NCBI GenBank assembly: GCA_050084515.1
Contig: CM114271.1
Coordinates: 37,758,001 to 37,822,000, forward strand
Direction of reading: 5' to 3'
DNA: 64,000 nucleotides
Origin: Blasia pusilla
Lineage: Eukaryota
Part shown: piece by piece, positions 3,551-43,150 of the stretch
How the letters are laid out: every line of letters starts with the position of its first letter
Numbering within the stretch: position 1 is the stretch's first letter
Made by a program: the position numbers and the translations under genes
The notes under the pieces: model-generated
What the model was told of the DNA's origin: nothing
Database searches by the model: none
What the model saw: only the letters and a program-made list of their open reading frames with translations

Positions 3551-3554
3551 GTGG

Positions 3555-7124: not shown

Positions 7125-7267
7125 GAGCCTCGCGCAGTCTCAGTTCGCAGGCCTTCATCGCCAACCAGTAAAGTCTCGCAATCAATCGATCTGCTCTTGC
7201 ATCCAACTTTAGATCTCCGTCTAGATCATTTAGTCCATTCCGTCAGGGTCGAGATTCAGCACCGGAA

Positions 7268-7930: not shown

Positions 7931-9244
7931 ATGAATTCAGCGTTGTGCGGGTAATGAACCCAGGGAATCAGAATTTACTCCCGTTGCATGTTTCCTGCCG
8001 ATCGAGCTAGAGCCCTTCAATTGTTTTTCGAAATTTCGTCATCAATTAGCATTGTAGGTAATTGTAAGTCAGAAACAGAATAACACCCTTGAACTCGACG
8101 CTTCCGTGTGTGTCCTAGTGCTAGCCGGCCCTGGTTCAACCAGCTTTAGTCGAGTTAGATCTAAAATCCTGGGGGTGCCATTCGGTGATGAGTTCCTGGC
8201 ACAGAGTTTTTATTCCCAATTAGCTTCGGTAAGAGCTCTGATTTCTCTCAAGCCTGATGGCGTCACGGCACCGCAGGATGCACGATTTTGGAAAGTGTAG
8301 GAGTTCTGATCCCTTCTATGAATGAAAATTTGGAAGACTTTACGGGACGCTCAGTCTATTGTGTACGCACAGCGGATAGCTATTAGCAAGAGTCTCTTGA
8401 AACGCACACATGTAAGAAACTTGCTGAACTCTCGCAACCTGGAAAATGTCATTAATGAACGAACAGATCCAATTTGAAGGCAAGCAGAACTATCAATCAA
8501 TCATTGAACAGTTCGGCGTTGAAAGCATCTCCCGCTTTCAGCGGCGAGCTGAATATTGCAAATGATATAGATGCAGAAGGTAGTTAGAATACGCGAAGAA
8601 GTTTTTGAAATGTCCTGCGAAGCTGTATCACTTTTTATAGTCACAAGTGTAGATGAAATTAATTATGAAGAAATGTGGACTGCTAAGTGGAACCATCAGA
8701 GTTTAGGACTAGAAGCTCGCTAGATTAAGGCTGAGAGTATTTTTCTATCTCAAAGACGGTCTACTTATTGAAGTAAAATTGGGAGCTCAAGAGACTGATC
8801 TAATGTGCGAAGGATGATGCATCTAACCATGAAAGAAGAAACTGAAATGATCCTCAAATAATTATGCGGGGAAAAGCCGATAAAGTACTGTAAAGAAGCT
8901 ACACTGGACCAGTGATTGGTTCAATCTCAGAGGAGGTGCAAGCTTTTTGCGTTAACTTGGTCATCTGTGGATCTTCTTGAAAGTTCCTACAGAGTGGACG
9001 TACGTCTGGACACGTTGAAGTCTCCAAGGGTCCCACGTGATCGCCAGGACTTCCAAGTCATGGTTATGGCAAGTCTACCAAGGTCTTGTTCGCGGCTTCA
9101 GACGAACTCAAGTCCGGAACTACAGGACATAGGTTGCTTTCGCTTACTCCCGATCGAGAGGCTTTACAAATCTACATCTGTGGGCACCATTCGGTCGGCC
9201 ATTTCCACGAGAGCTTCTGGTCTCGTGTACCGAAATCATCATTA

Positions 9245-19082: not shown

Positions 19083-19530
19083 GCGTTGTGGACCGAATAA
19101 TAAGGACCGTAGTGCTTTTCTATCGCAAAAGACACGTCACTCCAAGAGCTGCAAACTCTACGATTGAAGTAGAGTTTGGAGCTCGAGACTCTTATATACT
19201 CTCCGAAGGACAGTTCACCCAACGCAGTCATCCATCCAGAGTTTTGATCGCTGATCACCTTCGAGAAAAACTTGTCCTTACGATCCATGATGGTGCAAGA
19301 GCATGCTTCCCAAATAAAAAAAAAGCACTAGACTAAAAATTGTGTGGGCATCTGATGGCCAAATAAATCATCTCAACGATACACCCGATTGCACTCGGTT
19401 AAATGAGCTAGCTTTGGTTACCACAGACTCAATCTCACGGACTCTCATTCTTTATCTGTAACCTGACTCCATTCCATAATTGATGTTGATAAATTTAAAT
19501 TACGACTTATCATGAAAATATGTACTTCAT
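19083..19530. repeat. Orphan copy of the gene A downstream flank
   Basis: Aligns with about 27770-28270 and 60710-61075, which lie 3' of A2 and A3. No gene is attached here. Confidence 0.75.
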
Positions 19531-19882
19531 ACAAAGGATTCTTGGGGGAAGACTTAGTGGATGAGATGCTCGCGAAGGGTGCGCAGATCAAGAAGAAGAC
19601 TTGGGCGGATACATACATCACCCAAGAGGGCGCCACGATTCTGTCTTTGGTCAAAAATTTAGGCTTCCAAGAAAAATGCCACATAGGAGTTGGAGCGGAG
19701 GGAAATTTTTTGGCATCGAAGCGAGCAAAGTTCATTCAGACTGCTATGTCAGCAGTCACCAAGTACACTACGAGCAAGATGCAGCGGTACATTGCCATCC
19801 TCAACCCAGATCTTTGCTAGGACTTCTACAAGGAGTTGAAGGCGATCATTAAACGCCACAGGAAGAGGGACGAAGATCTATA
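19530..19882 (+). pseudogene. Internal exon fragment of the ParB-like element gene (duplicate of 52342-52697)
   Basis: YKGFLGEDLVDEMLAKGAQIKKKTWADTYITQE...TAMSAVTKYTTSKMQRYIAILNPDL matches the exon at 52.3-52.7 kb. Confidence 0.6.
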
Positions 19883-20050
19883 AGGTCGAATTGGGGAAAA
19901 GGTCTCATTAGACCGCGTCCACAGGTTAGCACTTTCAGGAATATCCGAATTTAGGTGGATCCGACTGATGAAAATTAGTCTTGAGGGGACTCAAGCACAA
20001 AAACAGGCAGCACATCATCCTCCGGGGGTATCAGACCCTCCCATCTCTCA

Positions 20051-20919
20051 TTGGCTGAGAGAATGGTCTTTCTCGGACTGCGGTATGTGGAATTCTCTGT
20101 TCAATTCGGGCTTCAATTTGAACCTTCTCTGAGTTTACAATTACAAGAATTCAAAGATGCTGATTGGGCAAGAAGCGTGTCTGATGGACACTCCATATAT
20201 GGTTATTCATTTACTTTGGGAAGCCCAATTACAAGTCTATAGTTACTTTATCTTCAAGAGAGGATGAATACAAATGAGCAATCAATGTAGCATGTGAGGA
20301 GGTGTGGCTTCATCAATTACTTGTTGAGATTGGTATTAGTAACTTAAGACCTAGAGTAATATATGCAGAAAATATTAGTAGCATCAAACTTGCTAATAAC
20401 CCTATGTTTCATGCTTATACAAAGCATGTTGAGATGCACTATCATTTTATGAGAGAGAAAATTCTTGCAAGAGAAATTGATCTTGTGTATATAGGTATAG
20501 ATCAGCAAATTGCTAACGTTTTTACAAAGGCATTGTCTAGAGATAAGTTTGAGATGTTTAGAAACAATTTAGGCGTTACAAATCTAAATATGAGCTTGAG
20601 AGGAAGTATTGAAGATTGAGTTACACACGAGATCATGAGACACTTGAACTGCTATATTTGGTACTCACGCAAAGTAGGGAAGCTTGATCTTGGTTAGTCA
20701 GTGAAGTGCGCTTATCTTAACTAAGGTTAGTCAATCACAATTAGTCTAACCAGAGACTATGGTTAAGATTAGGGTTAGGGTTGCTTGTACATACCCTATA
20801 TAATTGAGAAGGGGATCACCCTCCACTCATTCTCTCATTACAAAATTTTGTTCTCCACGGTGATGAGTGAATGTGAGAGCCGTTTCCCACCAGTTATGCT
20901 TCTTTAGCAATTTTCTACA
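20051..20919 (+). mobile_element. Ty1/copia 3' fragment: end of RT, RNase H, PPT and LTR (20607-20919)
   Basis: DADWA..SIYGYSFTLG and ENISSIKLANNPMFHAYTKHVEMHYHFMRE..QIANVFTKAL. PPT TTGAGAGGAAG. LTR ends ...TTCTACA. Confidence 0.85.
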
Positions 20920-23900
20920 TATTCACGATGTGTATTATTTCTAGTTGATACACCGTGTATTTTTTTGCACATCTTGTCTCGATCATCACTTTATTCTTAA
21001 GTACAAACTTTCTCAAGCGATACTATGGAGACTCTCTAGTTCCTTGGTTGACTTTCTTGGATCTCCCCAAGGACTCAATGGACTCGAAGAAATATCCTTT
21101 GTTTGATCCTTGAGAGATTTTGATAGAAGGTAGAGAGTTCAGTCATCCCCAAAGTCAAGACCCTTTAAAAGGCTTAATCTAGAATCCCAAGCCGGTCTTT
21201 TCATGATGTCCAACTTTAAGGTTTCTTTCAGTATATTAAAGGTTGATTGTCCCTTGTTTGTGGTAGCACTTCGTCAAGTTGAAGTTCTATTTGATATACT
21301 CTTCTTGAGAAAGTGGAGACCATTTCTCGCTCTCTAGGGGTGTTGGAGTTGCACTCTTTATGCCATAGTGTTCTTGGATGAACACACATTGGCACTGATA
21401 GCCTTCCCTCTTCTATGTATGGATTTCATTTATGTGCTTATCATCGCAGTGTTTCTTGTTACGTCATGGATTTGAGTGACCTTTTCTTGTTGAACTTGTT
21501 CAAAGATACAACTGTAGAGTCACGAGCAAAGCTGGAGAGCAAGAGCTAGAGCTAGAGATCCAATAGCAAAGTTGGAGCGGCCCAAGAAGACTTTCCCAAG
21601 GTGGGGGGGGGGCAGGTCAGAGGGCCCTAGAAGTATATATAAGGGGAAGGGTCTCTGAGGGTGCTTGGGATCTGAGCACTACTTTCAGTAGCCACAAGGC
21701 TAATCGAGGGCACGGAATGGACCAAGGGCAAGAGAGTAAATTTCAAAGGCCCCCCTTGGATTCCAACTATGACTTAGTTACTAGGTCTCATGGTTAGGGA
21801 CTCATGCAAAATCCATTAGATAGTTGGAACCGCTAAGCATGTGAGCCTCGTTTTAGGTGCCTTGAGTATCTAGAAAGTTTGTCCCAAGTCTACAAAGATC
21901 CGCCCGTATTGGGAAGTGAGGAGTTAGGACCTATTAAGCTTGATGCATGGCAAAGTTGAAAACTCGAAGAGTTGGAAGGGTGGTGGACGCAAACCAAGTC
22001 TAATGAGAGTGTATGTAGATGCAGATCAACAAAGTGAGCATGACCTACTAAATGTATGCTTCCGCAACATCTAAAATTGACGTTCAAAAGGAGTAGGTGC
22101 ACGATAGAAGGGATGAACGCAGACCCAAGTACAGATTAAGGATTGAACAACCTAAAATGTATTGCAAACAAAGCGTAATCAAAATGCTCAAAGAATGCAG
22201 TTTTTGACCCTAGTTTAGAATGACCTTGCTGACTTGGGCCCCATAGTCGTGTATGCTTCCCGCGGACTAAAAAGAAAATTTGGCCGAATCCGGGGTTATG
22301 AGTAATCATAGCTGGTTAAAATTGGTTTTGGTAAAAAAATGGCAAGATTGGGGGTTTTGAAATGGTAAAATCGATTTGAAATCCAATTCTACTATTCCCC
22401 GCTATGAAATACCAGTTCCCATTCTTGCTTCGGTCCACAACGAATATGCTCAAAACTTCAAAAATGTGTTATTTCACAAAATTGAGCTTTTAATAATGTA
22501 AAAATATTTTTAATTTCAATACTAACTAGTATGCGTCCGTTATAGGAAAAGGAAGGCATGATAAAGGGGCTCATGGAGGGAATAAATGAAATATATGGGG
22601 GAGTTTTGGTAAGAATGGGAAGGGGGCTGGTATTTTGGCAGGAGAGAGTAAGAGAGGAGAGGAAGAGAGAAAGAGAGGAGATTCTCTCTTAAAAAAAAAG
22701 GGAGAGTCCGCCTCCTCTCTTCTAAAATTTCATTAGTTTCTTTATAAGTTTTTCTCTTTGAAATGCTAAAAAACTTTAGAAGAGAGTAACAAGTGGACTA
22801 GATTGGGTCATAAACTAACTTCGTGTTTCCAGGCTTCAATCCTAAACTAGACACACCAAGACCAAGTAAGCCGTGGTCTATATATACTACTTACATCACT
22901 CTATATGCTAGCCAAGACTTTCACTACTAATAGATGGGATTTATTTTCTCCTAGGACATTCTTGGAGATTGATAAACAGGATATCAAATTGGGTGAGTTT
23001 ATTAGAAAGTGATGGGTTTGAATATTTCCAACTATGACTTAGACTTCTCTGAGGCCACGAATCAGTCGTCTATGTTGGCTGAGCAATGGGTATATGGAGT
23101 GTCTATGATGGTGATGGATGTTTGGAAAGTTTAGGGCTTAGCGTTTAAACACATCAGTCTGAGGTAAAGAAAGCGACCCTTAAGGCCTACATGGAAGGAC
23201 TACAAGGAAAATAAAGGCAATCAACCTTTCATCATGTCGGAATCCGACAGGTTGGTAGAAAAGCTAGTGACGAAACAAGTGGAGAGAATGAAATGAAGGT
23301 AAGGCATCATCCTTCCATGCAACCTGTCGGAATCTGACAGGTTTAGATGCTGATTGCTTCCATTTTACTCTAAGTCCTTCCTTGTAGATCTCTGTCCTCT
23401 CTTCATGCAACTTGTCGGATTCCGACAGGTTGCATGATAGATGAAGTTTGAATCTAAGAAGAACAACAAGAATGAAGCCTCCCAACCTGAGGCATGCCAA
23501 CCTGTGAGAATGCAATAAGTTTCAGAAAATAACGCCTGAGTGAGGAATGGTTTGAAGGAAATGGGGAACAAGGCGAGGGTCCACAAGCCAGCAAAAATGC
23601 TTGAAAGGATTGTGGTGGCATGGGAAAAGAAAAGTCAGTCAAGTAGACAACCTGTCCAAATCCAACTGGATGGAGGACGTTAAATTGGGAAAATGCAGCA
23701 GCCAATCAATTTGACGTGCAACCTGTCTGAATCCGACAGGTTTCCTGAATGGATCATAGAGAAAGAGGTTTTAAAAAAATATGAGCGTCCCGGAAGCAAT
23801 AAATCCTACAACTTTTTGGAATCCAATAGGTTGCAAGCATGGTCTTTGGTTTGCAACCCAGTTTAATCCGACGGGTTGCTCAATGAAGACCGTTCAGCAA

Positions 23901-24042
23901 AGAGGAATCGCAACCGAGATACACAAGCACCACTACTTAGAAGACACATCAAGAACGTTAATATCCTTAAAAAAAATGGAAGGCCTTTATTATATCCTAG
24001 GGAAACTCGGAAATTTACATTTGTTCACATAATCCAACAACT

Positions 24043-25626
24043 CTAGTCTATGATTTCCTCAGCCTTGTCATCTACAAATTTACTCCTAACTCTCCTCGGC
24101 TCCTGTACAAGAGGAATGTCTTGGGATACTAGTGGCTCATCTCGTCGATTGTAGATGGGGATTGAGAATGTAGGAGAAGTTGATGGCCTTGCCTCCCCCC
24201 CTAAGTACACCATATCGGTCCCATGTGTGATTTTAAGAGTCCCAAAGCCTTCCCCGTAAAAAAATCTTGTATGCTCCGCAAGGTGACATCCATCCACTAT
24301 CAATATGTACTTTGTCACTTGAAACCACCACATCCCTACTCCAAAACACTTGAATCAATTGAACCCGATAAATCCAGTGAACTCACTCATCATCTTCGGA
24401 GAGCTCCTCCAAAACGATTGCCGGCCTTGCCCTGCCGATTTTTGGAATGACAAGAAGGGAAGATGGCGTCACTACCAATGGGTCTACTGCTGGAGCAGTT
24501 GCCTTTGGAGGCGAGTTGTAGACTCCCACAAGCCTTTCGTAATCCACCTTTGCCTCCTTGCAAAGGTCGAAAAGTTTCGTTCTTCCTTCAATGGAGAGAA
24601 TGTTTCTGCCACTCTACCATGCACCTCTGATACTCGCCCCTGATAAACCAACCAAGTCCAAGACCAAATCACATGGCCTCGAGCATAGCTCAATGAGGGT
24701 CTGCATCAGGGCAGGTGACTTATCCCTTCCTCCAAGTAAAGGCGTGCCTTCAATCATAAAGAGTCCCTGGGGGGATTTGTAAAGGTTATCCAATGTGATC
24801 CAATCCAAGCATGGATCGACGGGATTGGATATCTGAAACACCTAAAACATGTGCTCTGGTCTCACAAAACAGTAGACATAGGAGTGCTCCATCTGTCCAC
24901 AAGGCAAGAGCAAAAAATGGTTAGCTTTAAGGTGGAACAAGCCTACACGTCGGAAACAGACCGCTTGCTCTACAACTTCCTAAACATCACCTGTGCAACC
25001 CGTCGGATCCCCATGGGTTGCTCATAAACAAAAAGAGATTTTGTCTAGCTCTACAACTTCGTCAATATGCCCTAGTGCAACCCGTCGAATCCCGAAGGGT
25101 TGCACTGGTTGGTTTTTTCCTTATCCAAGCATCTACTTTAGAAGCAACCCGTGAGAGCCCGACGGGTTGCTCATAAACAAAGTAAGATTTCTTGAAACTA
25201 TATACTTTCATCAAAATGCCCCCGTGCAACCCATTGGTCTCCGACGGGTTGCACTGGTTTCTTTTTTCCTTATCCAAATATCTAGTTGAGAAGCAACCCG
25301 TCGGTTCCGACGGGTTGCTCATCAGCAACGTCATAAGTCTATGAGCAACCCGTCGTGTTCTGATGGGTTTCTCATCATGGGGAAACGGTTGCACTAAATG
25401 TCTCTACACGATTCCTACAATCCGTCGGGATCTGACGGGTTGCATATGTAAACCTACGGTCTAGAACATAGAAAAAAAATGGAATAAAGTAATTTTGAAC
25501 ATACCCGGATTTGATTTGTAGAAGATATGTGTGGGTCTTCATTTTTAACCACCCACGAGTGTACCCTCCTCCACTTTAGCAACCTCTTCACGCAGTGAAG
25601 GTTGAAGACCTCGTCTTTGCTCCCTC
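24043..25626 (-). pseudogene. Decayed spliced gene fragment resembling the C-terminal half of an N4-C/N6-A DNA methyltransferase (copy 1; exons about 25626-25505 and 24892-24043)
   Basis: Donor CGG|GTATGT, branch point GCTAAC and acceptor CAG give a phase-0 join. Translation includes GTPLLGGRDKSPALMQTLIELCSRPCDLVLDLVGLSGASIRGAW*SGRNILSIEGRTKLFDLCKE, which parallels the K..L...LI...S..GD.VLD.F.GSG.T..A...GR..IG.E SAM-binding region. The catalytic D/S-PP-Y motif is not present in the window. Confidence 0.55.
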
Positions 25627-27760: not shown

Positions 27761-28737
27761 GTAAAGTAAAACGTTGTGGACCATAATCGCGACACCGTCT
27801 ATCCCAGAAGACGGTGTCGCGATTGAAGTAGAGTTTGGAGCTCGAGACACATATATATCATCCAACGCTGCCAGGTCAAAACTGATCACCTTCGAGAATA
27901 ACTAACGGAGCTTCGCAAAAAAACCAGAGCACAAGACTAAAAGCTGTTTGGGCATCTGATGACCGAGTCAATCCTCTCAACGGTACACCCGATTTCACTC
28001 GGTTATACTAGCTAGCTCCGGTTACCACAGCACTCAATCTCACGGACTCTCATTCTTCATCTGTAACCGGATCGATCCATGACGGAGCTTCGCAAAAAAA
28101 ACAGAGCACTAGACTAAAAACTGTGTGGGCATCTGATGAATCAATCATCTGACTAGGTTATACTGCTAGCTCCGGTTAAGCACTCAATTCACGGACTCTC
28201 ATTCTTCATCTGTAACCGGACTCCTTTCGATAATTGATGTCTGATGTTGATAAATTTAAATGACGACTTAAGTATTCGGTAGCCAGGGAAACTCGAAAGC
28301 ATCAAGCACTGTAAACGTACTCTTTCAAATCTTCATGCATAGAAGGGATCAGAACACATGAGCCCTTCAAAATCGTACATCCTGCCGTTCCGAAAAGACA
28401 GCGCAAGGGCATGGCAGATTAGAGCTCGCGCCAGAACTGAGAAAGTGTGTGCTGGGAACAAATCAGAAAATGGATAGTGGCGTGCACCTCCGTGCAGGCT
28501 AACTAAACCCGGTTGAATCAAGCAGCACCTTACCACTAGCACGTATAAAAATGGAAGGCTCCGATCCAGCTCGACACTGTTATTCTGTTACTACACTTAC
28601 AACGTCACACCGATAATTGATGCTGGTGGTGACGATCAATCATAAGGAGGGCCTTGAGCTCGATCTTCAGTGAAACAAGCAAGCAGAATTGATTGGTATT
28701 CGATGGGGATTAATACTGTGCATATCGTTGACTTCAT

Positions 28738-29661
28738 CTAGGCGCTGTCCTTGATATATCCTTCGACTGCCTTGAACAAATTTGTGACTGCTCCCTTCGC
28801 TTGTTCGACGACGCCAGGAATGGCGTTTTCTGAGCCGCCCTCGTACTCGGTGGTGACGTGCACCTTGCACTTGTCATCGCCGACCGCGATGATGGTCATA
28901 CTGGTAACCCACTTGGTGAAGCCCACGCCCTCACTGAGATGTCCTCCCTCGATCTCTTGGGTGGTGATTTTAGCATCACCTTCGAGGTCCAGGCCGATGA
29001 GCTTCTCCTTGACGAACGCGCCGGCGGGCGCCACTGGAAAATGTAAACGGAGTTGGTGTGAGAGACCATCATGAATTTCAGGTGGCCATGGCTACTTGTA
29101 CTAAGTCGATCACGGATACATCCTACATTTGAACGTTGAGTTTTGAAATTGACTGACTCCTTCTATCGACCTGAATGAGTTTAACCGCATGCGTCAAACT
29201 GGAGCTAAGCGCAGGGGTCGATACATTCATTGTTTCCGGTGATATTCACACCAGGAAGGCCAGTAGGAAAGCGCGCCGAATCTTATTATAGCTAGATTTA
29301 ACTAGAACTGTACATCTGGAATCGGTTCCATCGATCTCTTCGAATTCATCGATACGTTCAAGCCAAAGTTGAAGTACGAGCTGCGAAATGGGACCGGTAA
29401 AACCGAGCGTACTCACATGCCTTCGGTAATCAAATGCAACAATGTAGAGCCAACAAACATCTCACTGGGATACAGCATGTGTGAGCTTACCGAAGTTGAT
29501 GATTCGCACCGAGCCTACGTGTCCTTCCACACCCTCGATTTCCTCCATGGTGCTAATGACCTCTGGTAAGAGCTTGGGAACAGCGTGTTTTGCTCCTTCA
29601 AAGCTCCCCACAGGGCGCTCACAGGCACGGCCAACTCGACAGCAGACTCGAAGGAACCCAT
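28738..29661 (-). pseudogene. Bet v 1/PR-10-family gene A copy 2 (exon 1 29661-29491, exon 2 29033-28738), 1-bp deletion at about 29577
   Basis: Exon 1 is 171 nt versus 172 nt (AGCTTGGGAAC vs AGCTTGGGGAAC). Splice sites and exon 2 are intact. Could be a homopolymer error. Confidence 0.75.
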
Positions 29662-30721
29662 TTCCGGTCCAGTACTGAATCTCGGTACTGATGCGATAGA
29701 CTCTGGAGACGAAACTCTCGAGATGAAGATGTAGGTACGGGATGCAAGAGCAAATCGAGTGATGGCGAAATTGTGAGAGAGTACTGGTTAGCGATGAAGC
29801 TTGCGAACTGAGATCGCGCGCGCTCCTTATATACTGAACAGAGCAATGTGAGGCTGCTCTGTAGTTGCTGCCATCCGCCCGTACTCGGGTGCTGAATCAT
29901 GCCTCCCAGTGGAGGCCGGGATGGTCGAGAAAGGATTCCCCACCTCCACGGCCTCCACGGTCAAATGACGACGAAGTCCAAAGTTGCTGTTCTAAAGGTC
30001 GTCCCGCTCTGACCCGTCCGACGTAGCAAGCGTCTTCTCGAACTTCCATTATGGGCGCGGCTCGGATAAATTGGTCACTAGAATAGGCGTTTTCACCGGC
30101 CGAAAGACAAGTGAACATTACGCTTTTACGCCTGTTCCATCCGCTTTTAGCCTCTGTTGACTCGTTTGAGGACAGAGAAAGGACGACCTCACCGGCGTTT
30201 AGCATGCAGCCCGCGGTAGGATACGTTAAATTCGTATAGAATCGCGTTGAGACGGTCGGTCAGTGGAAACTCGTTAGTGTAAATATTGATAATGGACTGC
30301 CTTCGAGGGTTGTTCGTGCGTGAGTCATGAAGCGGATCACGGGAGTCAGATTAAAGCTAATGCAAGTTACAGCGAAGACCTTTCTAGGGACAAGGGGCAT
30401 GCTAACTCGGACCGATGCGACACGCTGCCCCGTTGCAAGTCCTCAAGAGCACATGCCTAGCAAGACGTCGTCGGCAGGCCTGGGAAGCATTTCTGGTCGT
30501 TTGATCTAGACCAATGCATGCATGGCCTTTTTCCCGTGCTAGGCACCAGCTGAGGAGCGTCCTCTGTTCAGTATATAAGAGCCTCGCGCACTCTCAGTTC
30601 GCAGGCCTTCATCGCTAACCAGTAAAGTCTCGCAATCAATCGATCTGCTCTTGCATCCAACTTTAGATCTCCGTCTAGATCATTTAGTCCATTCCATCAG
30701 GGTCGAGATTCAGCACCGGAA

Positions 30722-31494
30722 ATGGGTTCCTTCGAGTCTGCTGTGGAGTTGGCCGTGCCTGTGAGCGCCCTGTGGGCGGCTTTGAAGGAGCAAAACACGC
30801 TGTTCCCCAAGCTCTTACCAGAGGTCATTAGCAGCGTTGAGGAAATCGAGGGTGTGGAAGGACACGTCGGCTCCGTCCGACTCATCAAGTTTGGTAAGAT
30901 CACGAAAGAACATGTCAGGCTCAAGAAGTTTATGCACACAGTGTTGATGAGTAAATCACGGTCCGTTTTATTGATCCCATTTAGCAGTCTATATATAAAG
31001 AGGGGGTTTAAATTACTGTCTTGATCGATGGGGTTGGTGGATAGCCTGTTCAGTCAATTGCAAGACTTTTGGATAACGTTCTCGGATGAATGCGTGATCG
31101 ATGTTACAATTAATGGCGATGAACGCTTAGTATCAATAGGCATGGCCACCTAAAATTGAATGATCGGTTCTCACACCAACACCGTCCACACTTTCCAGTG
31201 GCTCCCGCGGGCGCGTTCGTCAAGGAGAAGCTCATCGGCCTGGACCTCGAAGGTGATTCTAAAATCACCACTCAAGAGATCGAGGGAGGACATCTCAGCG
31301 AGGGCGTAGGCTTCACCAAGTGGGTTACCATCATGACCATCAGCGCCGTCGGCGATGACAAGTGCAAGGTGCACGTCACCACCGAGTACGAGGGCGGCTC
31401 AGAAAACGCCATTCCTGGCGTCGTCGAACAAGCGCAGGGAGCAGTCACACATTTGTTCAAAGCAATCGAAGATTATATCAAGAACAAGGCGTAG
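30722..31494 (+). CDS. Bet v 1/PR-10-family protein, gene B copy 2 (exon 1 30722-30893, exon 2 31199-31494, 155 aa), intact
   Basis: 172 + 296 nt exons, G|GTAAG...TTTCCAG intron, ends LFKAIEDYIKNKA*. TATATAA upstream at about 30573. Confidence 0.9.
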
Positions 31495-32402
31495 ATGAAT
31501 TCAGCGTTGTGCGAGTATTGAACCCAGGAATCAGAATTTACTCCCCGTTGCATGTTTCCTGCCGATCGAGCTAGAGCCCTTCAATTGTTTTTCGAAATTT
31601 CGTCATCAATTAGCATTGTAGGTAATTGTAAGTCAGAAACAGAATAACACCCTTGAACTCGACGCTTCCGTGTGTGTCCTAGTGCTAGCCGGCCCTGGTT
31701 CAACCAGGTTTAGTCGAGTTAGATCTAAAATCCTGGGGGTGCCATTCGGTGATGAGTTCCTGGCACAGAGTTTTTATTCCCAATTAGCTTCGGTAAGAGC
31801 TCTGATTTCTCTCAAGCCTGATGGCGTCACGGCACCGCAGGATGCACGATTTTGGAAAGTGTAGGAGTTCTGATCCCTTCTATGAATGAAAATTTGGAAG
31901 ACTTTACGGGACGCTCAGTCTATTGTGTACGCACAGCGGATAGCTATTAGCAAGAGTCTCTTGAAACGCACACATGTAAGAAACTTGCTGAACTCTCGCA
32001 ACCTGGAAAATGTCATTAATGAACGAACAGATCCAATTTGAAGGCAAGCAGAACTATCAATCAATCATTGAACAGTTCGGCGTTGAAAGCATCTCCCGCT
32101 TTCAGCGGCGAGCTGAATATTGCAAATGATATAGATGCAGAAGGTAGTTAGAATACGCGAAGAAGTTTTTGAAATGTCCTCCGAAGCTGTATCACTTTTT
32201 ATAGTCACGAGTGTAAATGAAATTAATTATGAAGAAATGTGGATTGCTAAGTCGAACCATCAGAGTTTAGGACTAGAAGCTCGCTAAATTAAGGCTGAGA
32301 GTATTTTTCTATCTCAAAGACGGTCTACTTATTGAAGTAAAATTGAGAGCTCAAGAGACTGATCTAATGTGCGAAGGATGATGCATCTAACCATGGAAGG
32401 AG

Positions 32403-35400
32403 TAAAGTTTATTTCAGCAATTCTACTGAGCGGAATTGGTTGGTCAGCCATGTGAAGAGTTTTATACATGAGCTAAGTGCTCATGCTGTTTGATTGGAGT
32501 CTAACTCGTCTATGCAGTGTTTACGTTGAAGCCTCTTTGTTTACTGTGCAGTGCGGCTTATTGCCGTTTACACATTCCAACATCCTCCCTAAACGGAACA
32601 TATGTTTTTACACAGAATCTAAAACACCAAGAAGTGATTTAAATCTTTCAAACTTAGCAGTAGGAAGGCCTTTGGTGAAGATGTCAACAACCTGTTCGTC
32701 TCTCGGACACCACACAACATTGATGTCCCCACTTAGTACCTTTTCTCGAACAAAGTGATGCTGCACTTCGATATGTTTGGTTTGTGAATGGAAGAGTGGA
32801 TTTATGGACAAATAAATAGAACTAATGTTATCTCCCAAGATTACAGTAGGATCAGATTGGATAAATCGAAGTTCAGCCAATAGTCCTCTAAGCCATATGG
32901 CTTCCGTTGTGGCATTTGTCAATCCACGGTATTCTGCCTCTGTGGAAGATAGAGAAATTGAGGCTTGTTTCTTTGATGAGAAGCTCACAGCCGCACTTCC
33001 AAAGGAGAAGAAATATCCTGAAGTTGATTTGCGAGTTATTGGACAACCTGCATAATCAGCATCTGAGAATCCCAAGATTATCGGAGCTTGTTGGATTCCT
33101 CTATCGTAGGCAAGCCCAAATGTGTTTGTACCCTTTAGATACCTTGCCACCCTCTGATCCACCTTCGGGGATCAGCCATATGTTGGTTGATTTGGCTTAT
33201 TGCATATGCAATATCTGGTCGGAGTTGGTGATATAGATAAGTGACCCCACCATTTTTTGGTACTCTTTCAAGTCCACCTTCTCCTCTTGATCATTAGAAG
33301 TAAGTCTCTCTGTACTCGTCGGAGTGGGCGTTGATTTGCAGTCCTCTAGGCCAAAAGTTTGAAGCAAGATAGCTATATGCCTTTCTTGAGTCAAGAAGGT
33401 CATTTTCGGCCCTCGCTTTACTTCAAGTCCTAGGTAGAAGTGTAAACTCCCAAGATCTTTCCTTTTGAATGAAGAGGAGAGTCCTTCTTTAAGATCACGT
33501 ATCCCTTGTACATCATCTCCAGTAATGATCAAGTCATCCACATATAAGATCACAATGACAATCCCGTAAGTAGAGATCTTGAGATAAAGGTTCGGGTCGT
33601 GTTTACTCTTTGCAAATCCAAGTTTGTTTAACATAGTCGAGTCATAGGTTTGATTCCAGATTCGATTTGCTTGCATCACGCCATAAAGAGCTTTCTGCAT
33701 CTTGCAAACAAGGTCTTCAGTTCGAGGAGCAGTAAAGCCTTGAGGTTGTTGTAGATATACCTCTTCTTCCAAAGTGCCATTTAAGAAGGCATTTTGAACA
33801 TCCATCTGCAATAGGGGCCAATCAAACATGACTGCAAGAGATATGATCACTCGAATCGTGGTCATTTTTGCAACTGATGCATATGTCTCATCATAATCAA
33901 TGCCTTGGCATTGTCGAAAGCCTTTTGCTACTAGCCTTGCCTTGTACCTAGACAACGATCCATCAGCGTTATACTTACACTTATAAACCCACTTTGTAGG
34001 GATAGCAGTCCTCCCTGATGGGAGACGGACCAGGTCCCATGTTCAGTTGGCAACTATGGCATTGTACTCCTCGATCATTGCATGTTGCCAATGTGGATTA
34101 GTGCATGCTTCTTGGAATGATTGAGGCTCAATGGGAGCTTGCTGAAATGGTGTATGACTTAGAAAGAAAGCCATATGTAAAATGTAATCCTCTCGTAAGT
34201 TGGAAGGAAGTTGGCGTAGTCGACTTGACCTTCGTGGAGGTGGTAGCGCAAGTGTGGACTCCATATCGTCCAATCCTTGACCTCTTTCACCAAGTGTTGG
34301 TGGTGGATCAACATAAGTTGTGGGCCCTGAGGATGGTGTATCCTTGTCAGATTCATTTTCTGACTCCTCGTTCGTGGAGGTTTGAGGCCACTCTCGGTCG
34401 TTTGATTGATGCTCTTCGGAGTGGGGAGTGTCTTCATCAAATATGACGTCACGGCTCATAAACACCTTGTGGTGCTCCAAGGAGAAGAGCTTGTAAGCTT
34501 TCTCTCTAGTGCCATAGCCAATAAATATACATCTCACATTTTTCTCATCAAGTTTTCTCCTCAATTCTTTTGGTATATGTGCATAAGCTCCACACCTAAA
34601 GATTCGAAGGTGTGAGACATTTGGTTTGATGCCAGTGAAGACTTCTTCAGGCGTTTTCTCCTCCAAAGCCCTTGTTGGGCACTTGTTGAGGATGTAGATG
34701 GCCGTGTTTATGGCCTCTGCCCAGAGATAGTTGGGGAGATTTCGCCCCTTCAACATGCATCTTGCCATCTCAACTACCGTTTCATTCCTCCTCTCAACAA
34801 TACCATTTTGTTATGGGGTGTAGGCCGTAGTAAGTTGATGACCGATGCCATGATCGCAACAAAAGGTCTCAAATGCTTTCCCCATGAATTCACCTCCCCT
34901 ATCCGTTCGTATCACCCTCACCTTTGAGGGCGGCTCGCCAAGGTGTAGATGCAAGGATCCCACTGTTGTAGTAGATTGAGTTCTCATCAATGTAAGAAAT
35001 TTCTTGAGTATACCTAATGCATTGGATTTGTGTTGTAGGAAATAAACCCACATAGATCTTGAATGGTCATCAACTAATAGGATGTAGTACCTTGTCCCTG
35101 ATAGTGAAGCCGTTTGAATTGGTCCTCCAAGGTCGATGTGGACTAGGTGGAGGGGAGTTGGAGCCCTTGAGAGGGTATGTTTGTCAAAATTTTGCCTCGA
35201 TTGCTTGCCTCGTAAGCAAGTGTCACAAGTGGATATTTCTCCACTTAATTTAGGTAACCCTCCAACCATATTGTCTTTGCTTAACAACTTGAGGCCCTTC
35301 ATGTTAAAGTGCCCAAGTCTTTCATGCCAAACTTGTAGTTGGTTTGAAGATCTTGCAAATAGTTGAGGGCTCGGCTTGCTAAGAAGTTTATATAGTCGTC

Positions 35401-37372
35401 CATACCTTACTCCTTGGGCTTGGCATGCACTGTCGGCCTCTTGTAAGAACTCACATCCTTTGGAATAAAAAACTACCTTCATATTCTCTCTTTCGGTGAT
35501 CTAGCCGATGGAGATAAGGTTGTGTGTTAAAGCTGGAATATGCCACACATCCTTGATTGTATAATCTTCACCCGAGGGCAATGTCACTTGCACATCTCCT
35601 TCCCCAATCGCAGAGTGAATGGAGCCGTCTCCCATTGATACTTCAGGTCCATTCATCAAAGGTTTGTAAGATGTGAACCAACCTTTATTTTTGATCATGT
35701 GGTTGCTGGCGCCGCTATCAATGAACCACTTGTCCACTTGGTTTGTGGTAACCAATGTCGAGATAAGTCCTCGTGCATCATCTTCACTTTCTGGTGTGAG
35801 TGCTCGATTGGTTCTCCCATTCTCGGCGAGGAAGCTTCGCTGCTTTTCTTGTGGTCTCATTGATCGATTGTGGCGATCATTCCTGTACCAACATTGATTG
35901 GAGTCATGTCCAATCTTACCGCATATTGTGCACTCCTTCTTGCTGGTAGTGCTATAGGTCTTACCATTGAACTTTTTCTCGGTGGTGCGGAAGGTTTGGG
36001 CCTTTGGTCCGGATGTGTTGCGTTCTTGTGATCGCCTTTCTTCATATTGACGAGGGAATGTTCCCTTCTTTTGGCTGAATAGAGCGCTAGGTCCCGATTC
36101 TTGTCCTTCTTGGGCAGCAAGGTCGTTGCGTCTCCTTTCTTCGTCAAGTAGGAGTGTGCATAGTTCAGAAAAAGTAGGCGTCTTTTCTCTCACGGCTAGA
36201 GAGTTTATGAAGTCCCCGTAGGAGTCTTGGGCCACACTATTCATCATAGTGGCTGCCATGGTTTCATCATCAATTAAGACCTTAACTTCTGCCAAATCAT
36301 CTCTTAGCTCTTTCATAATGCTGAGGTGTGAATACATAGTCGAGGTCGAGCTCATCTTCATTGAGTAAATTCGCCTCTGCAATGCCAGTTTTCTGGTCAT
36401 GCTTGTGCTAGCATGAACCGCTTCAAGTGTAGTCCAAGCTTCCTTGGAGGTCTCTGCATGTTTCAAATGAGGGATTTGAGAATCTCGTTGACATCATCAG
36501 AATTCCAAGGGCCTTTCGATCTCTCTTCTCAAGTCTTTGTGGCTCGAGCATCCATATTCGAGGTCTTCTCTTCTCTGCCATCAACTATATCGTAAAGATC
36601 ATATGCCATCGAATGGCCTTCATCCTCAGACGCCAAGTGCCGTCGTAATTGCTCTCATCGAGCTTGTGGCTCTCACTCAATATGTTGTCGGTAAGGCTCG
36701 TCATCTTTGATCTTGATAGGTGCTCGCCTTCGATCTTGCTGGTCTTCCTTGCCTGCATATGATCGACTTCGATTGCTAGTCTTCTTCCTCTTCTTTCAGC
36801 TTGATATTTGTCCCTGTGAAAAAAAAAAAAGAAAAATAAGGTACAAACGGGTACACACTTCTCTTCACTTGCATGCTCCTGTTTTCTATCCAGAGTTCTC
36901 GTCCTATTTTCATTGTATATGAGTACCTCTATTGGGAGTATGCTTATGTCCCTGTCAAAAGGGTATGTGAGTTCGCTGTCCTATTCTCTCTCAGATATGA
37001 GTACCAATCTCACTCGGAGTAGGAAGTAGATCTAAACTGCTCAGTGCGATTTCAGCTTGTGAGAAATTGCTAGAGATCTCACGCGTAATATGCACGAGTT
37101 TCAGTTTGTAAGAAATTATTAGAAATCTCACATGAAACCTGCTCTGATACCATGAAGTTTATTTCAGCAATTCTACTGAGCGGAATTGGTTGGTCAGCCA
37201 TGTGAAGAGTTTTATACATGAGCTAAGTGCTTGTTGCTCGCATGCTGTTTGATTGGAGCCTAACTCGTCTATGCAGCGTATACGTTGCACCCAAGTTGCC
37301 TCTGCAGCGTTTACGTTGAAGCCTCTTTGTTTACGGTGCAACGCGGCTTGTTGTCGTTTACACATTCCAACA
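32403..37372 (-). mobile_element. Full-length but decayed Ty1/copia LTR retrotransposon (4970 bp)
   Basis: LTRs at 37153-37372 and 32403-32582. PBS TGGTATCAGAGC (37141-37152, tRNA-iMet type). PPT TTAGGGAGGA. TSD AGGAG at 32398-32402 and 37373-37377. Gag CCHC (CTICGKIGHDSNQC), protease WFIDSGAS, integrase (WHERLGH, RTDRGGEF), RT (QMDVQNAFLNG, LYVDD) and RNase H (DADYAG) occur in copia order, with stops and frameshifts. Confidence 0.97.
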
Positions 37373-38613: not shown

Positions 38614-41600
38614 TATGAAGTTGGGGCACTGAATATGAAAAACAAAAAAAAGACATGGGGGGCTTGAGGAGGAGGAGGACTATGGAAGAAGACTATGGCG
38701 GACGTTTAGAATTTTGTTTCTAACTATTTCCATAGTGATCCAATCTTTTCAATTTAAGGCCCAATGTGTTCATCTTTTCAAGCTTGAACTTTGGATTCTT
38801 TTTTTTTCCACTTAAGATTGAGATTTCCAGAGTTCTTGGGATCTTTGGACCTCCTTCTCTCCTAAATGTGCTCATAGATTCCTATACGCAATTTCATACA
38901 TAGCGCTCTCCTTATAGAGTGATACCGGGTTACCATCAGTTAAAGGGATTCCACTTGCTTTTATGGATCTTTTGATACGGGCTCGGCCCAACATTACGAA
39001 CTCATTCCCTCATAGCGGTCATTGGTGGGTGGCTCACTTCCTCCCCCACATCCTCTTTTTCCGTGTTTCCAATTTCTTTCATAACTTTCTTATCGAATGT
39101 CGGTTTTGGGCGTTTTTGGGCCTGTTTCGATCGTCTAGATGAGCTCGTTCTTTTGATATCAAGTAGGTTTTCTACTTTTTCTTCCTTCTTTGTAGGTGCC
39201 TATTTTTGTGTACGGGTTTGTTTTAGGTCAATTCCTCCCAAAAGTCTTCCTTGCTCTTTCAACTCCTTACCTTATTGTTTCGCCCCTACATACGTTTAGA
39301 ACATTAGAAATTCATATTCTTGAGCCACCTCTTCCGATACCATATCCATCACTTTTCCTTTTCAATTACTTTTTATATTTTTCTTATAGTAACGTTCAAT
39401 CATAAATTCGGTATTGCCTTATCTTCATCTCTCCACTACTTTTGCTTTGTTTGTTATCCTCTTGCTTTCTCCAAACCACGTTCCGTATGTCTTTTCTTGT
39501 CTTCGGAGACTTGCCTACCTTTACTTCTATGTCATCAGAGATGGAGTTGGATTCTCCATCTACTCGCTTATCTGGTTTTACACGCCCTGCTACAGCGGTA
39601 ACCTCTCCCCCTGGTTCACCTCCTCATCGTCGATCTTGCCATTTTCCTCCAGAGGCTAATACACCCATTCCACTGGCTACATTTCTTCCGGATTCTCCTC
39701 TTCTCCCTTCTTCGCCTTGTCCTATTGAGCCTAATCCTGATCCATTATTACCGAATCCTTCTACTTTGCCATCCCCACATATCTCAACTATGCCCTTGCT
39801 TCCAACTCCCATCTATTCTACCCGAATCTCCCCTCTTCCTCCTCCTCCTTCCCCAACCTATTTACCCCCTCATCGTCGGCCATCACCACCTCTTGCACCT
39901 CCCACCTCCTCTCCTTGTAACCCTTCTACTTCTCCATTTGTACCAAAGGTTCGTTGCATACCTTGTGGTAAGGACTTTGCTCCTAATGGGATCAAAAGAC
40001 ATCAACGGTATTGTCGATCCATGCATGGGCCTTCAATCCCTAACCCGATACCAACTCCTAGTGCACTCCCCACAACAACTGCTTGGACCTGGTTAAGCCA
40101 AATTGATCTCCTTCGCTCTTTCCATCCAAGTCTTCCTCGTCCTAAACTCTACACTCGTATTCCTATTGCTCTTCGCCCCATCATCAACAAGCTTTACTAT
40201 TCCCATTAGAAAGGTTAGCGCGTGACCCCACAAATATAAATGCTTGGTATCTCCTATTACTCTTCCCACAATGGGTTTTAGTCCTCCCTCCAAGGGGGAT
40301 GCAATGGGTCATCGTGAAACCTCCACACGTATTCAACACTTTATGTCAGGGGATTGGGAGAATCTTCAGAATGAGCATGTACTTCGAGCTGAGGCCTTAG
40401 CTGCGGCTCATCCCACTCAACATGCCAATCATGGGAGGCCTTCAATACAACAACGCCTTCGACGAAGTCTACTATTGGGGCATGTTGGTGAGTTTTCACG
40501 TGCAACTCGAGCATTGGGTCCTCTTTCTCCGGCGGTTCCAAGTGCGGAAACAGTGGCTCTCTTAGAAGCTCTTCATCCTCTTTCAAGTGGCGATGCTCCA
40601 TCTTTTGTGGAAGACTATACAACAAACCTTGACTTGGAGCTTGACTTGGAGGTTTTCACTAGGGCTTTTCTGCATACTCCTCGCTTATCGCCAAGCGGGC
40701 TATCGGGATGGTTTTTAGCATCTCGCGATTGCTTTATCCGAGCAGATTCAGCAAGTGGCTTTGTCTCTCTATATAAGGTGTGTGCACATATGGCGGCACG
40801 TTGTCTCCCATTCTCTATCTCTAGGCTCTTAGGGGCTTGTCGTTTGTTGGCTATGGATAAGCCTCCTTCGTGTGTCGCCCTTTGGCTATTGGAGAGGTTT
40901 TATACCGCTTGGGTCGATCCCTATGCTTGCAATTTCGTCCTCACTCTAGTGCCCACTTATTTCCTCATCAATTTGGAGTGGCAACTCCTGGAGGTTGTGA
41001 GGTTGTGGTGCATTGGATTTGCTCCACTCTTGATATTCATCCAGATTGGGTAGCAATTCAAGTCGATGTGGCTAACACATTCAATTCAGTTTCTCGTGCG
41101 GCCATCTTTGAGGAATTACGTTGTGCAGGAGGACAACTCGCGAGCCTCATTCCATTTGTTCGCTCCTTCTATGCCTATGATACGCCCATTATTTATTCCC
41201 ATCATGCTACTTCTGGGGAATATAGTATTCTACAATCGGCTTGTGGCACACGTCAAGGTGATCCCATGGGAAGCCCACTCTTTGCCATTGCCCATTTTCG
41301 TGCCCTTCGAGCATCAGCGCAAGCATTTCCATCTTGTCTTTTCCCTTCTATTGATGATGACACTCACATTTTAGGTCCTCCTTCTGAAGTGGTTCCTGCT
41401 TATACCCATTTCGTGGAGCAACTCTCTTTCTTAAACCTTAAAGTCCAACCTAGTAAATGTGGAGTATGGTCTCCTTCATGCCTTCCCTCAACATTCACCC
41501 CACCTACTCCTAATTTTCCCATTTACATTGAAGGGGTTAGAGTTCTTGGGGTCCCAATTGGCTTCATCGACTATGTCTCAAAGTTCTTGGATGAGGCCCT

Positions 41601-43150
41601 TTTGAAAGACGTGGAATGGCTTCATTTATTACCTCATCTTGGGGATCCCCAAGTGGCTTATGGGATTCTCTCCCAATGTTTTCTTCGACGTCCTTCCTAC
41701 CTTCTTCGCACTTGTCCTCCCACTTCAAGCTTCTTACATCGGCTGGCCTCTTTTGATGCTTCTATCTTGGCAACTTTTGGTCAACTTCTTGGCCCGAATA
41801 CCTTTGAGGGAGAGGATGGTGTCTTTGCTTCACGACAAGCTATCTTGCCTATTTCTTTTGGAGGGGTGGGACTATCCTCCAGAGTCACATCTGCTCCCGC
41901 AGCCTTTTTGGGGAGTTGGGCGTTGGTAGCACCGATTATGGCTTCAAGGTTTCTCCAAGGAGATACACCTATCTTGATGGATCATATCGCCCATGTCGAG
42001 GAGGGGGTCTTGTTATTTCAACAACAACTAAGATTTGCACGAGCTCTTCTTCCTCTTGCTACACAAGCAATTCTAACTCCTTTCAGTCAACTAATTACAG
42101 AAGGGCTTGATCGACTTCAAGAGCATATCTCCGAGAATCTGCATCAAATCAACTTTTCCAGCATTCTCTCAAAGGCATCCTCCGACGTTAATCGAGCTCG
42201 TGTACGTTCATGTGCGGGTACCGGAGCGGGGGCGTGGCTTACTGCAAATCCTCTTATTCTCCTATTTCGTCTTCCTCGAAGTATATTCTCGAAAGCTTTG
42301 CGGTTATGTCTTGGACTTCCCCATCCTTCTCTCTTAGGTATGCCAAATTGTGTATGCGGGGATCCTATTGATGCCAAGGGTATCCATATTCTCCGATGTG
42401 CACATGGTGGAGAACGAACGGCCACACATGATGTCATTAGAGAGGCGGTAGCATCGGTGGCTCGTACGGCAGGATATACCGTTGGGCAAGAGCAACTCCA
42501 TGTCCTACCTTCAACCACACAAGCAACCTCTCGTCGGAGAGAGGATCTTGTTATGTCTCGAGGTGGATTACGGACACTAGGTGATGTGGTGGTTGCTGAT
42601 CCAACACGTTCTGACTTGGTGTGTAGAGTCGCACATACCAAAGGTTTGGCGGCCGAAGATGTAGCAAGAATCAAGGAGTTAAGTTATCTTTGTGAGACAT
42701 GCGATCGACGGATTTATTCCGTTTTGCAAAGTGGAAGTATTCGGTCATTTACATGTGTCTTTTGATACTTTCCTGAAAACATGTGCTGACCACTCCTCGA
42801 GAATCATCACCTTGCCCCTTCCCGTAGTCCTTCTCTCTCGGTTGTTACTACTTATTTTAGGCAATGCATCTCAATGGCTTTACAACGTGCACAAGCCTTG
42901 GCATTAATACGTCGTGCGGAGGTGGTGGGAGGTCGCTCGCCTCGTCGTCCATTCACGTCTGACCAACCACTCGTGTTCTTGTCAGATTTGTTTCAAGCAA
43001 TCGATCGTGTTGCTCGTTGAGCCGGTGTTTACGTGGGCTTGTTGCCATTTTCTTTTTGCATTCTTTTATGCATTTTTTTACTCCTCTTTTGAGTTATTAT
43101 TACCTTTCTTTGTCCTCTTTTGAGGTTTATTTTATAATAAAGTGGTTTCG
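38614..43150 (+). mobile_element. CRE-like (R2-superfamily) non-LTR retrotransposon with restriction-like endonuclease; frameshifted ORF about 39529-43020
   Basis: TSD TCATAGA at 38607-38613 and 43151-43157, with the empty site at 9974-9980. Pro-rich N-terminus and zinc finger CIPC..RHQRYC. RT motifs RPLAIGEVLYRL, QFGVATPGG, DVANTFNSVSR, GTRQGDP and IDDD. Zinc knuckle CVC..HILRC followed by HD..RREDL..GDVVV..KELSY..FIPF..EVFG. Confidence 0.88.

Follow-up and report, generated by a model that had tools for sequence, protein, structure and literature searches.

The window, a 64,000-nucleotide stretch of the Blasia pusilla genome, harbors on its minus strand a fragment of an amino-methyltransferase gene. 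It is the broken 3′ end of an accessory gene that belongs to a DNA transposon of very high copy number. The fragment consists of two exon pieces, 25626–25505 and 24892–24383. The first piece, corresponding by comparison with fuller copies to the last 41 codons of a long middle exon (motif VII region), translates to ...HSWVVKNEDPHISSTNQIR in the frame ...STNQIR, with its last base at 25505. It is followed by a GTATGT donor at 25504, a branch-point-like GCTAAC hexamer at 24925–24920 and a CAG acceptor whose last base is 24893, which, on sequence and copy comparison, delimit a GT-AG intron of 612 nt (24893–25504). The second piece (24383–24892) starts with MEHSYVYCF, reads MEHSYVYCFVRP...GGRDKSPALMQTLIELCSRPCDLVLDLVGLSGASIRGAW-stop-SGRNILSIE and ends with a TGA at 24385–24383; profile and copy comparison located motifs VIII, X, I (DLVGLSGA) and II (IE) and a low-complexity tail in it. 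It is interrupted by in-frame TAG stops at 24844–24842 and 24616–24614, and the segment that an earlier note on this DNA had obtained by reading through two TAG codons and a 612-nt intron was present exactly as described. The joined pieces contain motifs VII-VIII-X-I-II in the order of the beta-class amino-methyltransferases. The fragment occupies the stretch between the right transposon terminus, at 22622, and position ~25626, where another repeat cuts it; motif IV is expected upstream of this cut and is hence absent from the window copy. Downstream of the second exon piece lie an open-frame remnant (24043–24354, minus strand) ending in ...FVDDKAEEIID and a stop, which resembles the C-terminal FVDDEA tail of homologues from Riccia; five copies of a 27-bp palindrome, GCAACCCGTCGG-nnn-CCGACGGGTTGC, found by palindrome scan in the 3′ non-coding part (23229–23879); and the right transposon terminus (22622–22830, minus strand), which matches the terminus of a full-length copy at 79% and has its motif at 22622. 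Another copy of the 3′ fragment, found at 55448–58520 (minus strand) by self-comparison of the window, is 93.5% identical and bears the same two stops; neither this copy nor the cut at ~25626 was noticed in the earlier note.

The element was delimited by comparing six 30-kb neighbourhoods, which gave a length of ~12.8 kb with sharp ends. In the genome searched (390 Mb, 26 contigs), the last exon returned 3570 candidates; scores were computed for 150 of them, and among the 30 best 18 were stop-free. Exact matches to a 20-base left-end motif and a 26-base right-end motif occurred 886 and 476 times genome-wide, respectively, and the reversed controls gave none. The gene family has hundreds to thousands of copies, and the fragment is one of many transposon accessory-gene copies rather than a lone host pseudogene or one acquired horizontally. 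The left end (GAGGTGCGGTA...) and the right end (GGGGGCTGGTA...) are degenerate inverted repeats, each followed by purine-rich repeats, similar to Mutator-like elements (MULEs) lacking terminal inverted repeats. Among ten end pairs, picked by distance on contig 1, five had perfect 9-bp target duplications, two had perfect 10-bp duplications, two had duplications with 1–2 mismatches and one had none, and 90 cross-pairs used as control always showed at least three mismatches. The target site duplication of MULEs is 8–11 bp (PMC6446971), and the element agrees with Mutator in this length as well as in its terminal repeats, which may be long or, as here, degenerate.

The element carries two divergent genes on opposite strands, a transposase-like gene and the intron-containing accessory gene. 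The transposase-like product combines a Cys/His-rich domain with DDE-like motifs and a SWIM-like finger (CxC...CKH pattern), the Pfam SWIM score (E = 0.006, 16.5 bits) lying below the cut-off of 19.6. By eye, its motifs SFDICY, MADNAQ, DAFHWQQS and NTSGAESVH parallel GLDACH, VSDRQK and CAQHLRQN of the Pfam-positive MULEs of the same genome; the third catalytic-residue motif is a putative assignment. A profile of the transposase compared with these MULEs was not significant, and the Cys/His-rich domain, a candidate for the label "GCM/WRKY-like", showed no match in PDB or Pfam. The element is termed Mutator-like because of the duplication length, the SWIM finger and the by-eye motif spacing, the Pfam MULE profile giving no match.

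Ordinary Pfam-positive MULE families are also present in the genome and are distinct from the accessory-gene family (150 scored of 463 candidates). Among the first 100 places listed, element ends on contig 1 were strongly clustered at 8.1–11.5 Mb and 44–48 Mb and sparse at ~13–27 Mb, which points to preferential insertion or accumulation in heterochromatin. Internal deletions or rearrangements affect many family copies (e.g., L049 at 2548–3750, L052, L094, and L096), and copies are often nested in one another; in one copy an in-frame fusion joins the Cys/His-rich region of the transposase to the last exon of the methyltransferase. Unusually long open frames in some copies raised the possibility of intron-less forms, which was rejected, as these copies are internal deletions or rearrangements.

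The whole accessory gene was reconstructed from fuller copies (L037/L038), in which the first exons are followed by one containing FIWDGNHRFMAW, by an exon of 650 codons with the end VDLLIADLPSG...SQIR, by an intron of the 612-nt type and by the last exon. In the product of ~1,200 amino acids, a ParB/Srx-fold domain is followed by a helical region and a whole beta-class amino-methyltransferase fold. Since the protein of this genome is split by introns, Riccia homologues were chosen for AlphaFold modelling, with a predicted local distance difference test score (pLDDT) of 70 for the methyltransferase part and 85 for the N-terminal part. For residues ~10–175 of the N-terminal model, the five best VIA-align matches were all ParB/Srx proteins (Z 5.0–7.1), the best being KorB (Z 7.1, root-mean-square deviation (rmsd) 2.7, 95 aligned), and the best Foldseek match was ParB-CDP (E = 0.23). 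The sequence WDGNHR, a GxxR box, was invariant in 5/5 sequences, consistent with a ParB fold, and ESM Atlas assigned the ParB-like exon with a score of 0.95 to a cluster in which 11% of members bear ParB_N. The N-terminal fold together with the GxxR box places the domain in the ParB/Srx superfamily, at middling scores. The helical middle region gave no clear fold match when searched inside a 586-residue model. For the ParB-like exon (L038, 938–1414), ESM Atlas also listed, at a score of 0.94, a fungal cluster in which 31% of members carry DUF3723; DUF3723 is named in papers on Starship elements, and a ParB-like accessory domain common to the large mobile elements of eukaryotes is no more than a lead.

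A full HMMER scan with the long exon identified 37 proteins at E ≤ 0.001. The sources of 20 of these were looked up: nine were from Riccia sorocarpa, one from R. fluitans, two from Adiantum, one from Calypogeia and the rest from Logan, ENA or JGI records; none of the 20 named a prokaryotic source. A profile search added 29 proteins, of which 26 were Riccia models, and a Riccia model of 1207 amino acids (P0042) had the same domain architecture as the Blasia accessory gene. On these sequence comparisons, homologues occur in liverworts and ferns, and the full architecture is conserved as far as ferns. Word-indexed protein searches drew a blank for both the middle exon and the last exon, the latter searched among longer proteins only; the family surfaced only in the full HMMER scan. 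No prokaryotic donor emerged: relatives of the ParB domain were confirmed for none of 39 pattern matches in viral contigs and none of 121 in prokaryotic genomes, and phage tblastn gave only matches to methylases at E 0.01–0.2.

The methyltransferase assignment was evaluated at the level of sequence and structure. Pfam N6_N4_Mtase was matched at E = 0.008 by the window exon alone and at E = 2e-4 by an intact copy, both below the curated cut-off, and the best PDB match of the window exon by phmmer was M1.HpyAVI (E = 0.23). The family profile, to which the window exon aligns at 96% probability, matched M1.HpyAVI (5hfj) at E = 8.5e-7 across both halves in beta order. The methyltransferase model of Riccia matched beta-class amino-methyltransferases in Foldseek at E 5e-11, and VIA-align of the same model returned MboIIA, BceJIV, CcrM and M1.HpyAVI (Z 13.9–14.1, rmsd 3.6–4.3, 168–179 aligned), followed by PvuII (Z 13.4) and bdelloid N4CMT (Z 12.7). 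A Rossmann fold with motif IV N-terminal to X-I-II, as in the beta class, was observed. Structure prediction, which the earlier note had proposed for the repaired peptide, returned an S-adenosylmethionine (SAM)-dependent beta-class fold for the Riccia homologue, and both the class and motif order claimed there and its exclusion of C5 methylases agree with these amino-methyltransferase matches. In ESM Atlas the motif IV half was nearest to MT-A70-like and N6_N4 clusters (0.88–0.91), which is a lead only. The PF01555 matches scored in the genome (150 of 848 candidates) were all confined to the C-terminal half, and the 20 inspected belonged to the accessory-gene family.

The catalytic motifs of the family deviate from those of active enzymes. 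Motif IV was DLPS in 35 of 42 readable copies and had an aromatic fourth residue in none of the 42. All 27 homologues with motif IV located, by a pattern that permitted any fourth residue and restricted the first to D, H or N, read D(or H)-hydrophobic-P-x with x being S, T, K, I, N or E and never aromatic. The family thus departs from the (D/S/N)PP(Y/F/W) of active adenine-N6 (N6A) and cytosine-N4 (N4C) enzymes. CcrM and N4CMT hold the target amino group through residue 1 of motif IV and the main-chain carbonyl of residue 2, with the tyrosine stacked against the base (PMC10406627); changing SPPY to APPA, i.e., two residues, abolishes N4CMT activity (PMC8885841). Motif I was DLVGLSGA in 40/51 copies, and the motif II glutamate was retained in 50/51; motif I reads DFAGGWG in Riccia and EMGCSTA in the fern. 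Because the base-stacking aromatic residue of motif IV is missing family-wide and the first glycine of motif I is lost in the Blasia family, the domain probably does not transfer methyl groups and would be a conserved pseudo-enzyme. This accords with the suggestion of a divergent or inactive ancestor. The degenerate motif I pointed out in the earlier note is the selected state of the family and not decay; motif IV, whose absence from homologues was to have counted against a methyltransferase, is present in fuller copies but reads DLPS, so that this objection holds by half. As its first residue is D and not S, the sequence points to an ancestry of the N6A type, rather than of the N4C (DN4MT1) type. 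Motif IV of DN4MT1 is TSPPY (10.1101/2021.02.12.428880), and D-L-P-S does not correspond to the SPPY of DN4MT1 and N4CMT.

The ratio of nonsynonymous to synonymous substitutions (dN/dS) between the subfamily of the window and the main subfamily was 0.14 for the last exon (188 pairs) and 0.10 for the exon with motif IV (43 pairs), with dS of 1.1–1.2, the pairs being non-independent and the motif IV exon comparison resting on one window-type copy. Variants present in at least four copies showed dN/dS of ~0.14, and single-copy variants 0.7–0.8. By these ratios, purifying selection acted on the accessory gene during the spread of the family, and the motif degeneracy is old and selected. Post-insertion decay amounted to 7.1% at CG, 5.8% at CHG, 1.7% at CHH and 0.8% at A/T sites, and decay at CG and CHG explains the CAG-to-TAG stops of the window copy: both TAG positions are CAG in most other copies (34/51 at 24844–24842 and 39/51 at 24616–24614). 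The window copy itself is dead, a truncated remnant of the 3′ end of the transposon accessory gene that bears stops and decayed through C-to-T changes at methylated CG and CHG sites.

The counterpart of the 612-nt intron was located in 46/51 copies with lengths of 59–687 nt, and the scripted read-out of its ends gave a GT donor in 40 copies and an AG acceptor in 39, in agreement with the spliceosomal intron claimed earlier. Several Riccia models stop or restart at the same point. In two RNA-seq runs (6% and 12% sampled), first mates were almost all from one strand, consistent with sense transcripts, and depth was 16–28 over the last exon and 0.1–1.3 over the intron. The first intron of the accessory gene (1413 to 2391, GT..AG) was spanned by four reads; some reads contained small deletions. 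The FVDDEAEEIID sequence followed by a stop terminates the downstream frame in 22/34 matches at the loci scanned (a fuller-copy example is L038, 5881–6181). The stop codon preceding this frame sits within a donor-like GTGAGT hexamer, beyond which 24 and 27 RNA reads continue unspliced, and the FVDDEA tail is also well covered; alternative splicing and a lost last exon are candidate readings of the tail.

The second feature of the element is its palindrome arrays. One element contained 42 copies of the 27-bp palindrome (≤6 mismatches) at a spacing of about 50–70 bp, of which 34 were in introns or intergenic sequence and eight within the transposase gene, in a stretch of low complexity interpreted as an intron. 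The window held 44 palindromes as against none in five shuffles; all 44 were within stretches delimited around element matches, and seven were inside the 612-nt intron. Exact copies numbered 1334 genome-wide. Transversions were lower in palindromes (1.2–2.5%) than in the rest of the intron (3.3–4.2%), although an alignment bias may contribute. A distant metagenome homologue (L079), 29% identical and with an intron at the same place behind the ParB domain, carries in its upstream region eight copies of a different palindrome with the core TTCGGCGCCGAA; on a second such homologue (L080), a contig of 1.2 kb, no palindrome array was seen. Candidate target motifs are thus concentrated in the non-coding parts of their own element, as in VANC-type systems.

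ParB folds bind inverted repeats. The explanation that we favor overall, by a slight balance and by analogy, is that the accessory protein could be a VANC-like self-recognition factor for the palindrome arrays of its own element. The protein would bind the 27-bp palindromes as ParB binds parS and, after loading, may spread along the element. The dead methyltransferase domain would serve as a DNA-, base- or SAM-binding or dimerisation module, comparable to METTL14 and to the remnants in DIRS1 elements. The element would thereby possess a chromatin handle of its own, the simplest use of which is counter-silencing, and stay transcribed or mobile. The more specific proposition, that the protein loads on its palindromes in ParB/parS style, may spread and aids transcription or mobility, appears to us evenly poised.

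The nearest parallels support a role of this kind by analogy. In Arabidopsis, VANC binds short motifs in non-coding parts of its own VANDAL elements and removes silent marks (PMC10398659). VANDAL elements are likewise of Mutator type; their terminal repeats are degenerate, they carry an accessory gene, and their non-coding regions hold many short motifs that are family-specific (PMC10398659, PMC6446971). However, the function of VANC is proven and its targets are tandem repeats with short motifs, whereas the Blasia protein has ParB and methyltransferase folds, its candidate sites are 27-bp palindromes and its VANC- or PAG3-like working is inferred by analogy. In red algae, Plavaka elements (EnSpm/CACTA) carry PAG2 (PF01555 methylase and SET) and PAG3 (ParB and 2-oxoglutarate (2OG) oxygenase) beside inverted-repeat arrays, and PAG homologues also occur on Chondrus Mutator and Zisupton elements; binding and modification of the element's own DNA is proposed there without a test (10.1101/2025.02.11.637652). 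The Blasia element shares with Plavaka a giant DNA transposon, ParB-like and beta-class methylase domains, inverted-repeat arrays by the ParB gene and high copy number. It differs in that a single intron-containing gene encodes ParB and methylase together, instead of three separate genes (PAG1-3), and it is set apart from PAG2 and PAG3, by description, in its degenerate motif IV, land-plant host and 9–10-bp duplications. No SET or 2OG Pfam match was obtained in the eight element frames scanned or in the full Riccia model, and no red-algal protein was among the homologue records whose source was looked up.

Other systems resemble single components. CcrM, M1.HpyAVI, M.MboIIA, M.BceJIV, M.RsrI and M.PvuII share the fold and the motif order IV...X-I-II, but in Blasia DPPY/SPPY has become D-hydrophobic-P-x without the aromatic residue, FxGxG is altered, an intron splits the domain, and a ParB-like domain lies some 600 residues upstream in the same fused protein. 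The N4-methylcytosine writers DN4MT1a/b of Marchantia and N4CMT of bdelloids likewise have beta-class amino-methyltransferase folds in eukaryotes; they are active host genes with (T)SPPY, aimed at genes or against transposons, whereas the Blasia gene is transposon-encoded, multi-copy and carries DLPS. DIRS1 elements contain inactive methylase domains, and phages contain ParB-methylase loci (PMC4738411). DIRS1 and METTL14 parallel the conserved, probably non-catalytic amino-methyltransferase fold, that of DIRS1 being transposon-borne as well, but belong to another methyltransferase clade and, for DIRS1, another element class, and neither a ParB domain nor palindrome arrays are mentioned in the available part of that source (PMC4738411). 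The phage ParB-terminase loci combine ParB and an amino-methylase in one mobile-element locus and are a possible source (PMC4738411), although no prokaryotic or viral relative of the Blasia gene was found by sequence. MULE accessory proteins are diverse (PMC12973397), and the literature search, whose scope stopped short of the DN4MT1 trees and the Plavaka supplementary tables, returned no description of a fused ParB-methyltransferase family in land plants.

Several observations weigh against the self-recognition reading or parts of it. The transposase had no match to the MULE DDE profile (PF10551) with Pfam or with hhalign using low-diversity profiles. The best ParB-like match (Z 7.1) is middling on the tool's own scale, residues 178–304 reached only Z 3.6–4.2 against helix-turn-helix proteins, so that a DNA-binding helix-turn-helix behind the ParB domain was not demonstrated, and both structural models are of Riccia homologues and not of the Blasia protein. 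The transposon context was seen in the Blasia genome only, and not for the Riccia or fern homologues. The RNA reads were mostly 85–95% like the reference copy, their source organism may differ from that of the window, and the junction of the 612-nt intron was not among the junctions listed in either run. The motif IV aspartate, the motif II glutamate and a GxG-like motif I in Riccia are retained, which leaves room for catalytic activity. Palindromes decayed to the same degree as exons (CG 8.6% vs. 7.1%, CHG 5.9% vs. 5.8%). Shielding of the palindromes from 5-methylcytosine (5mC) decay was tested and found unsupported; because their CGs decay like exon CGs in aged copies, no lasting 5mC protection is visible.

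Among the alternatives, it is unlikely, in our estimate, that the domain is an active, non-canonical amino-methyltransferase which the ParB part anchors on the palindromes and which writes N6-methyladenine (6mA) or N4-methylcytosine (4mC) as a self mark or a block to 5mC. Strong purifying selection speaks for such an enzyme, and the aspartate and third proline of motif IV are kept across liverworts and ferns and are followed by a near-invariant P-x-W-N, a possible source of the aromatic residue. The residue 1 and residue 2 backbone contacts seen in CcrM and N4CMT (PMC10406627) could both persist, motif I of Riccia is DFAGGWG, and the Plavaka elements carry a PF01555 methylase gene (10.1101/2025.02.11.637652). 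On the other side, the stacking Tyr/Phe/Trp is missing in the 42 copies and 27 homologues read, and the SPPY-to-APPA mutant of N4CMT is dead, though it alters two residues (PMC8885841). The variation of motif I by lineage (DLVGLSG, DFAGGWG, EMGCSTA) suggests relaxed SAM chemistry, and palindrome CGs undergo ordinary 5mC-type decay. Still more doubtful is the extended form, in which a land-plant transposon lineage at least as old as the liverwort–fern split would possess a ParB/parS-like system fused to an active non-canonical amino-methyltransferase that loads on palindromes, slides and writes a 6mA or 4mC self mark against host silencing, such methylases perhaps having been the route of 4mC writers such as DN4MT1 into liverworts.

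It is similarly improbable that the protein assists transposition in the way of MURB or Mutyl MutB, or tethers excised copies in ParB fashion, with the N-terminal zinc domain of the transposase binding the palindromes instead or as well and silencing uninvolved. Such a role would fit the palindromes lying also between both genes, within the transposase gene and near the left end, the element ends that are only degenerate inverted repeats, and the unprotected CG decay in palindromes. A MURA–MURB interaction is also on record (PMC12973397). Against it, a separate palindrome array lies directly beside the ParB exon in the distant homologue L079, and ParB folds are textbook inverted-repeat binders, as is also argued for PAG3 (10.1101/2025.02.11.637652).

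Passive cargo of a decaying Pack-MULE, i.e., a captured host gene such as a DN4MT1-like 4mC methylase, is largely refuted and very improbable. The window copy is indeed broken and liverworts do possess a beta-class 4mC methylase (10.1101/2021.02.12.428880), but purifying selection acts across subfamilies with dS above 1, the full domain architecture is kept to ferns, motif IV starts with D and is not TSPPY, and none of the 150 PF01555 matches scored, out of 848 candidates, reaches beyond the C-terminal half, the 20 inspected being the accessory family itself. Bacterial contamination, which the earlier note had already argued against, or chance resemblance is refuted, single-exon scores under curated cut-offs notwithstanding, by hundreds to thousands of dispersed chromosomal copies with conserved introns, spliced RNA reads, plant homologues and a fold match of Z 14.

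In the Bostrychia preprint, VANDAL/VANC is described as the sole known case of a transposon system that binds its own sequence and modifies it (10.1101/2025.02.11.637652). The fused family would be a variant of this rare kind of transposon accessory system, and it brings to land plants a single fused protein, a sharply defined candidate site of 27 bp, copies in the hundreds and homologues from both liverworts and ferns, so that transposon self-recognition or self-protection becomes testable in tractable bryophytes. Dozens of Riccia and Adiantum models named "hypothetical", "trimethylguanosine synthase" or "DNA methylase" are probably transposon genes, which matters for cataloguing the 4mC and 6mA writers of plants. 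Six R. sorocarpa models (P0040, P0042, P0043, P0047, P0050, and P0051) are family fragments named "trimethylguanosine synthase" or "DNA methylase N-4/N-6 domain", and these too are probably transposon genes.

Further parts of the family were identified elsewhere in the window by family comparison. Pieces of another copy are spread over 45324–52892. Its transposase gene remnant, with the Cys/His-rich domain and DDE-like region, lies at 45324–47381 (minus strand). The first accessory-gene exons of this copy, including a ParB-like exon at 49403–49879, occupy 48675–49884 (plus strand), and its middle-exon start is found at 52248–52892 (plus strand), downstream of a gypsy-type reverse transcriptase (RT)/RNase H (50655–51467, minus strand) inserted in that accessory-gene copy. 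The second copy of the 3′ fragment is part of a 6.1-kb block duplicated at 93.5% (19529–25626 and 52341–58439) and is cut by a copia RT remnant. The block is a chimera of a forward middle-exon piece, a copia end, unassigned sequence and a reversed element 3′ end. Other repeats in the window include a copia element with gag, integrase and RT (32600–36500, minus strand), a further copia RT (58270–58938, minus strand) and an RVT_1-matching frame, probably of a long interspersed nuclear element (39400–42765, plus strand). A GC-rich repeat of ~3–4 kb is present in three copies of 92–98% identity (4939–8841, 28087–31528, and 60905–64000) and has internal inverted repeats, for example at 5253–5630/7565–7942 and 6026–6389/7108–7449.

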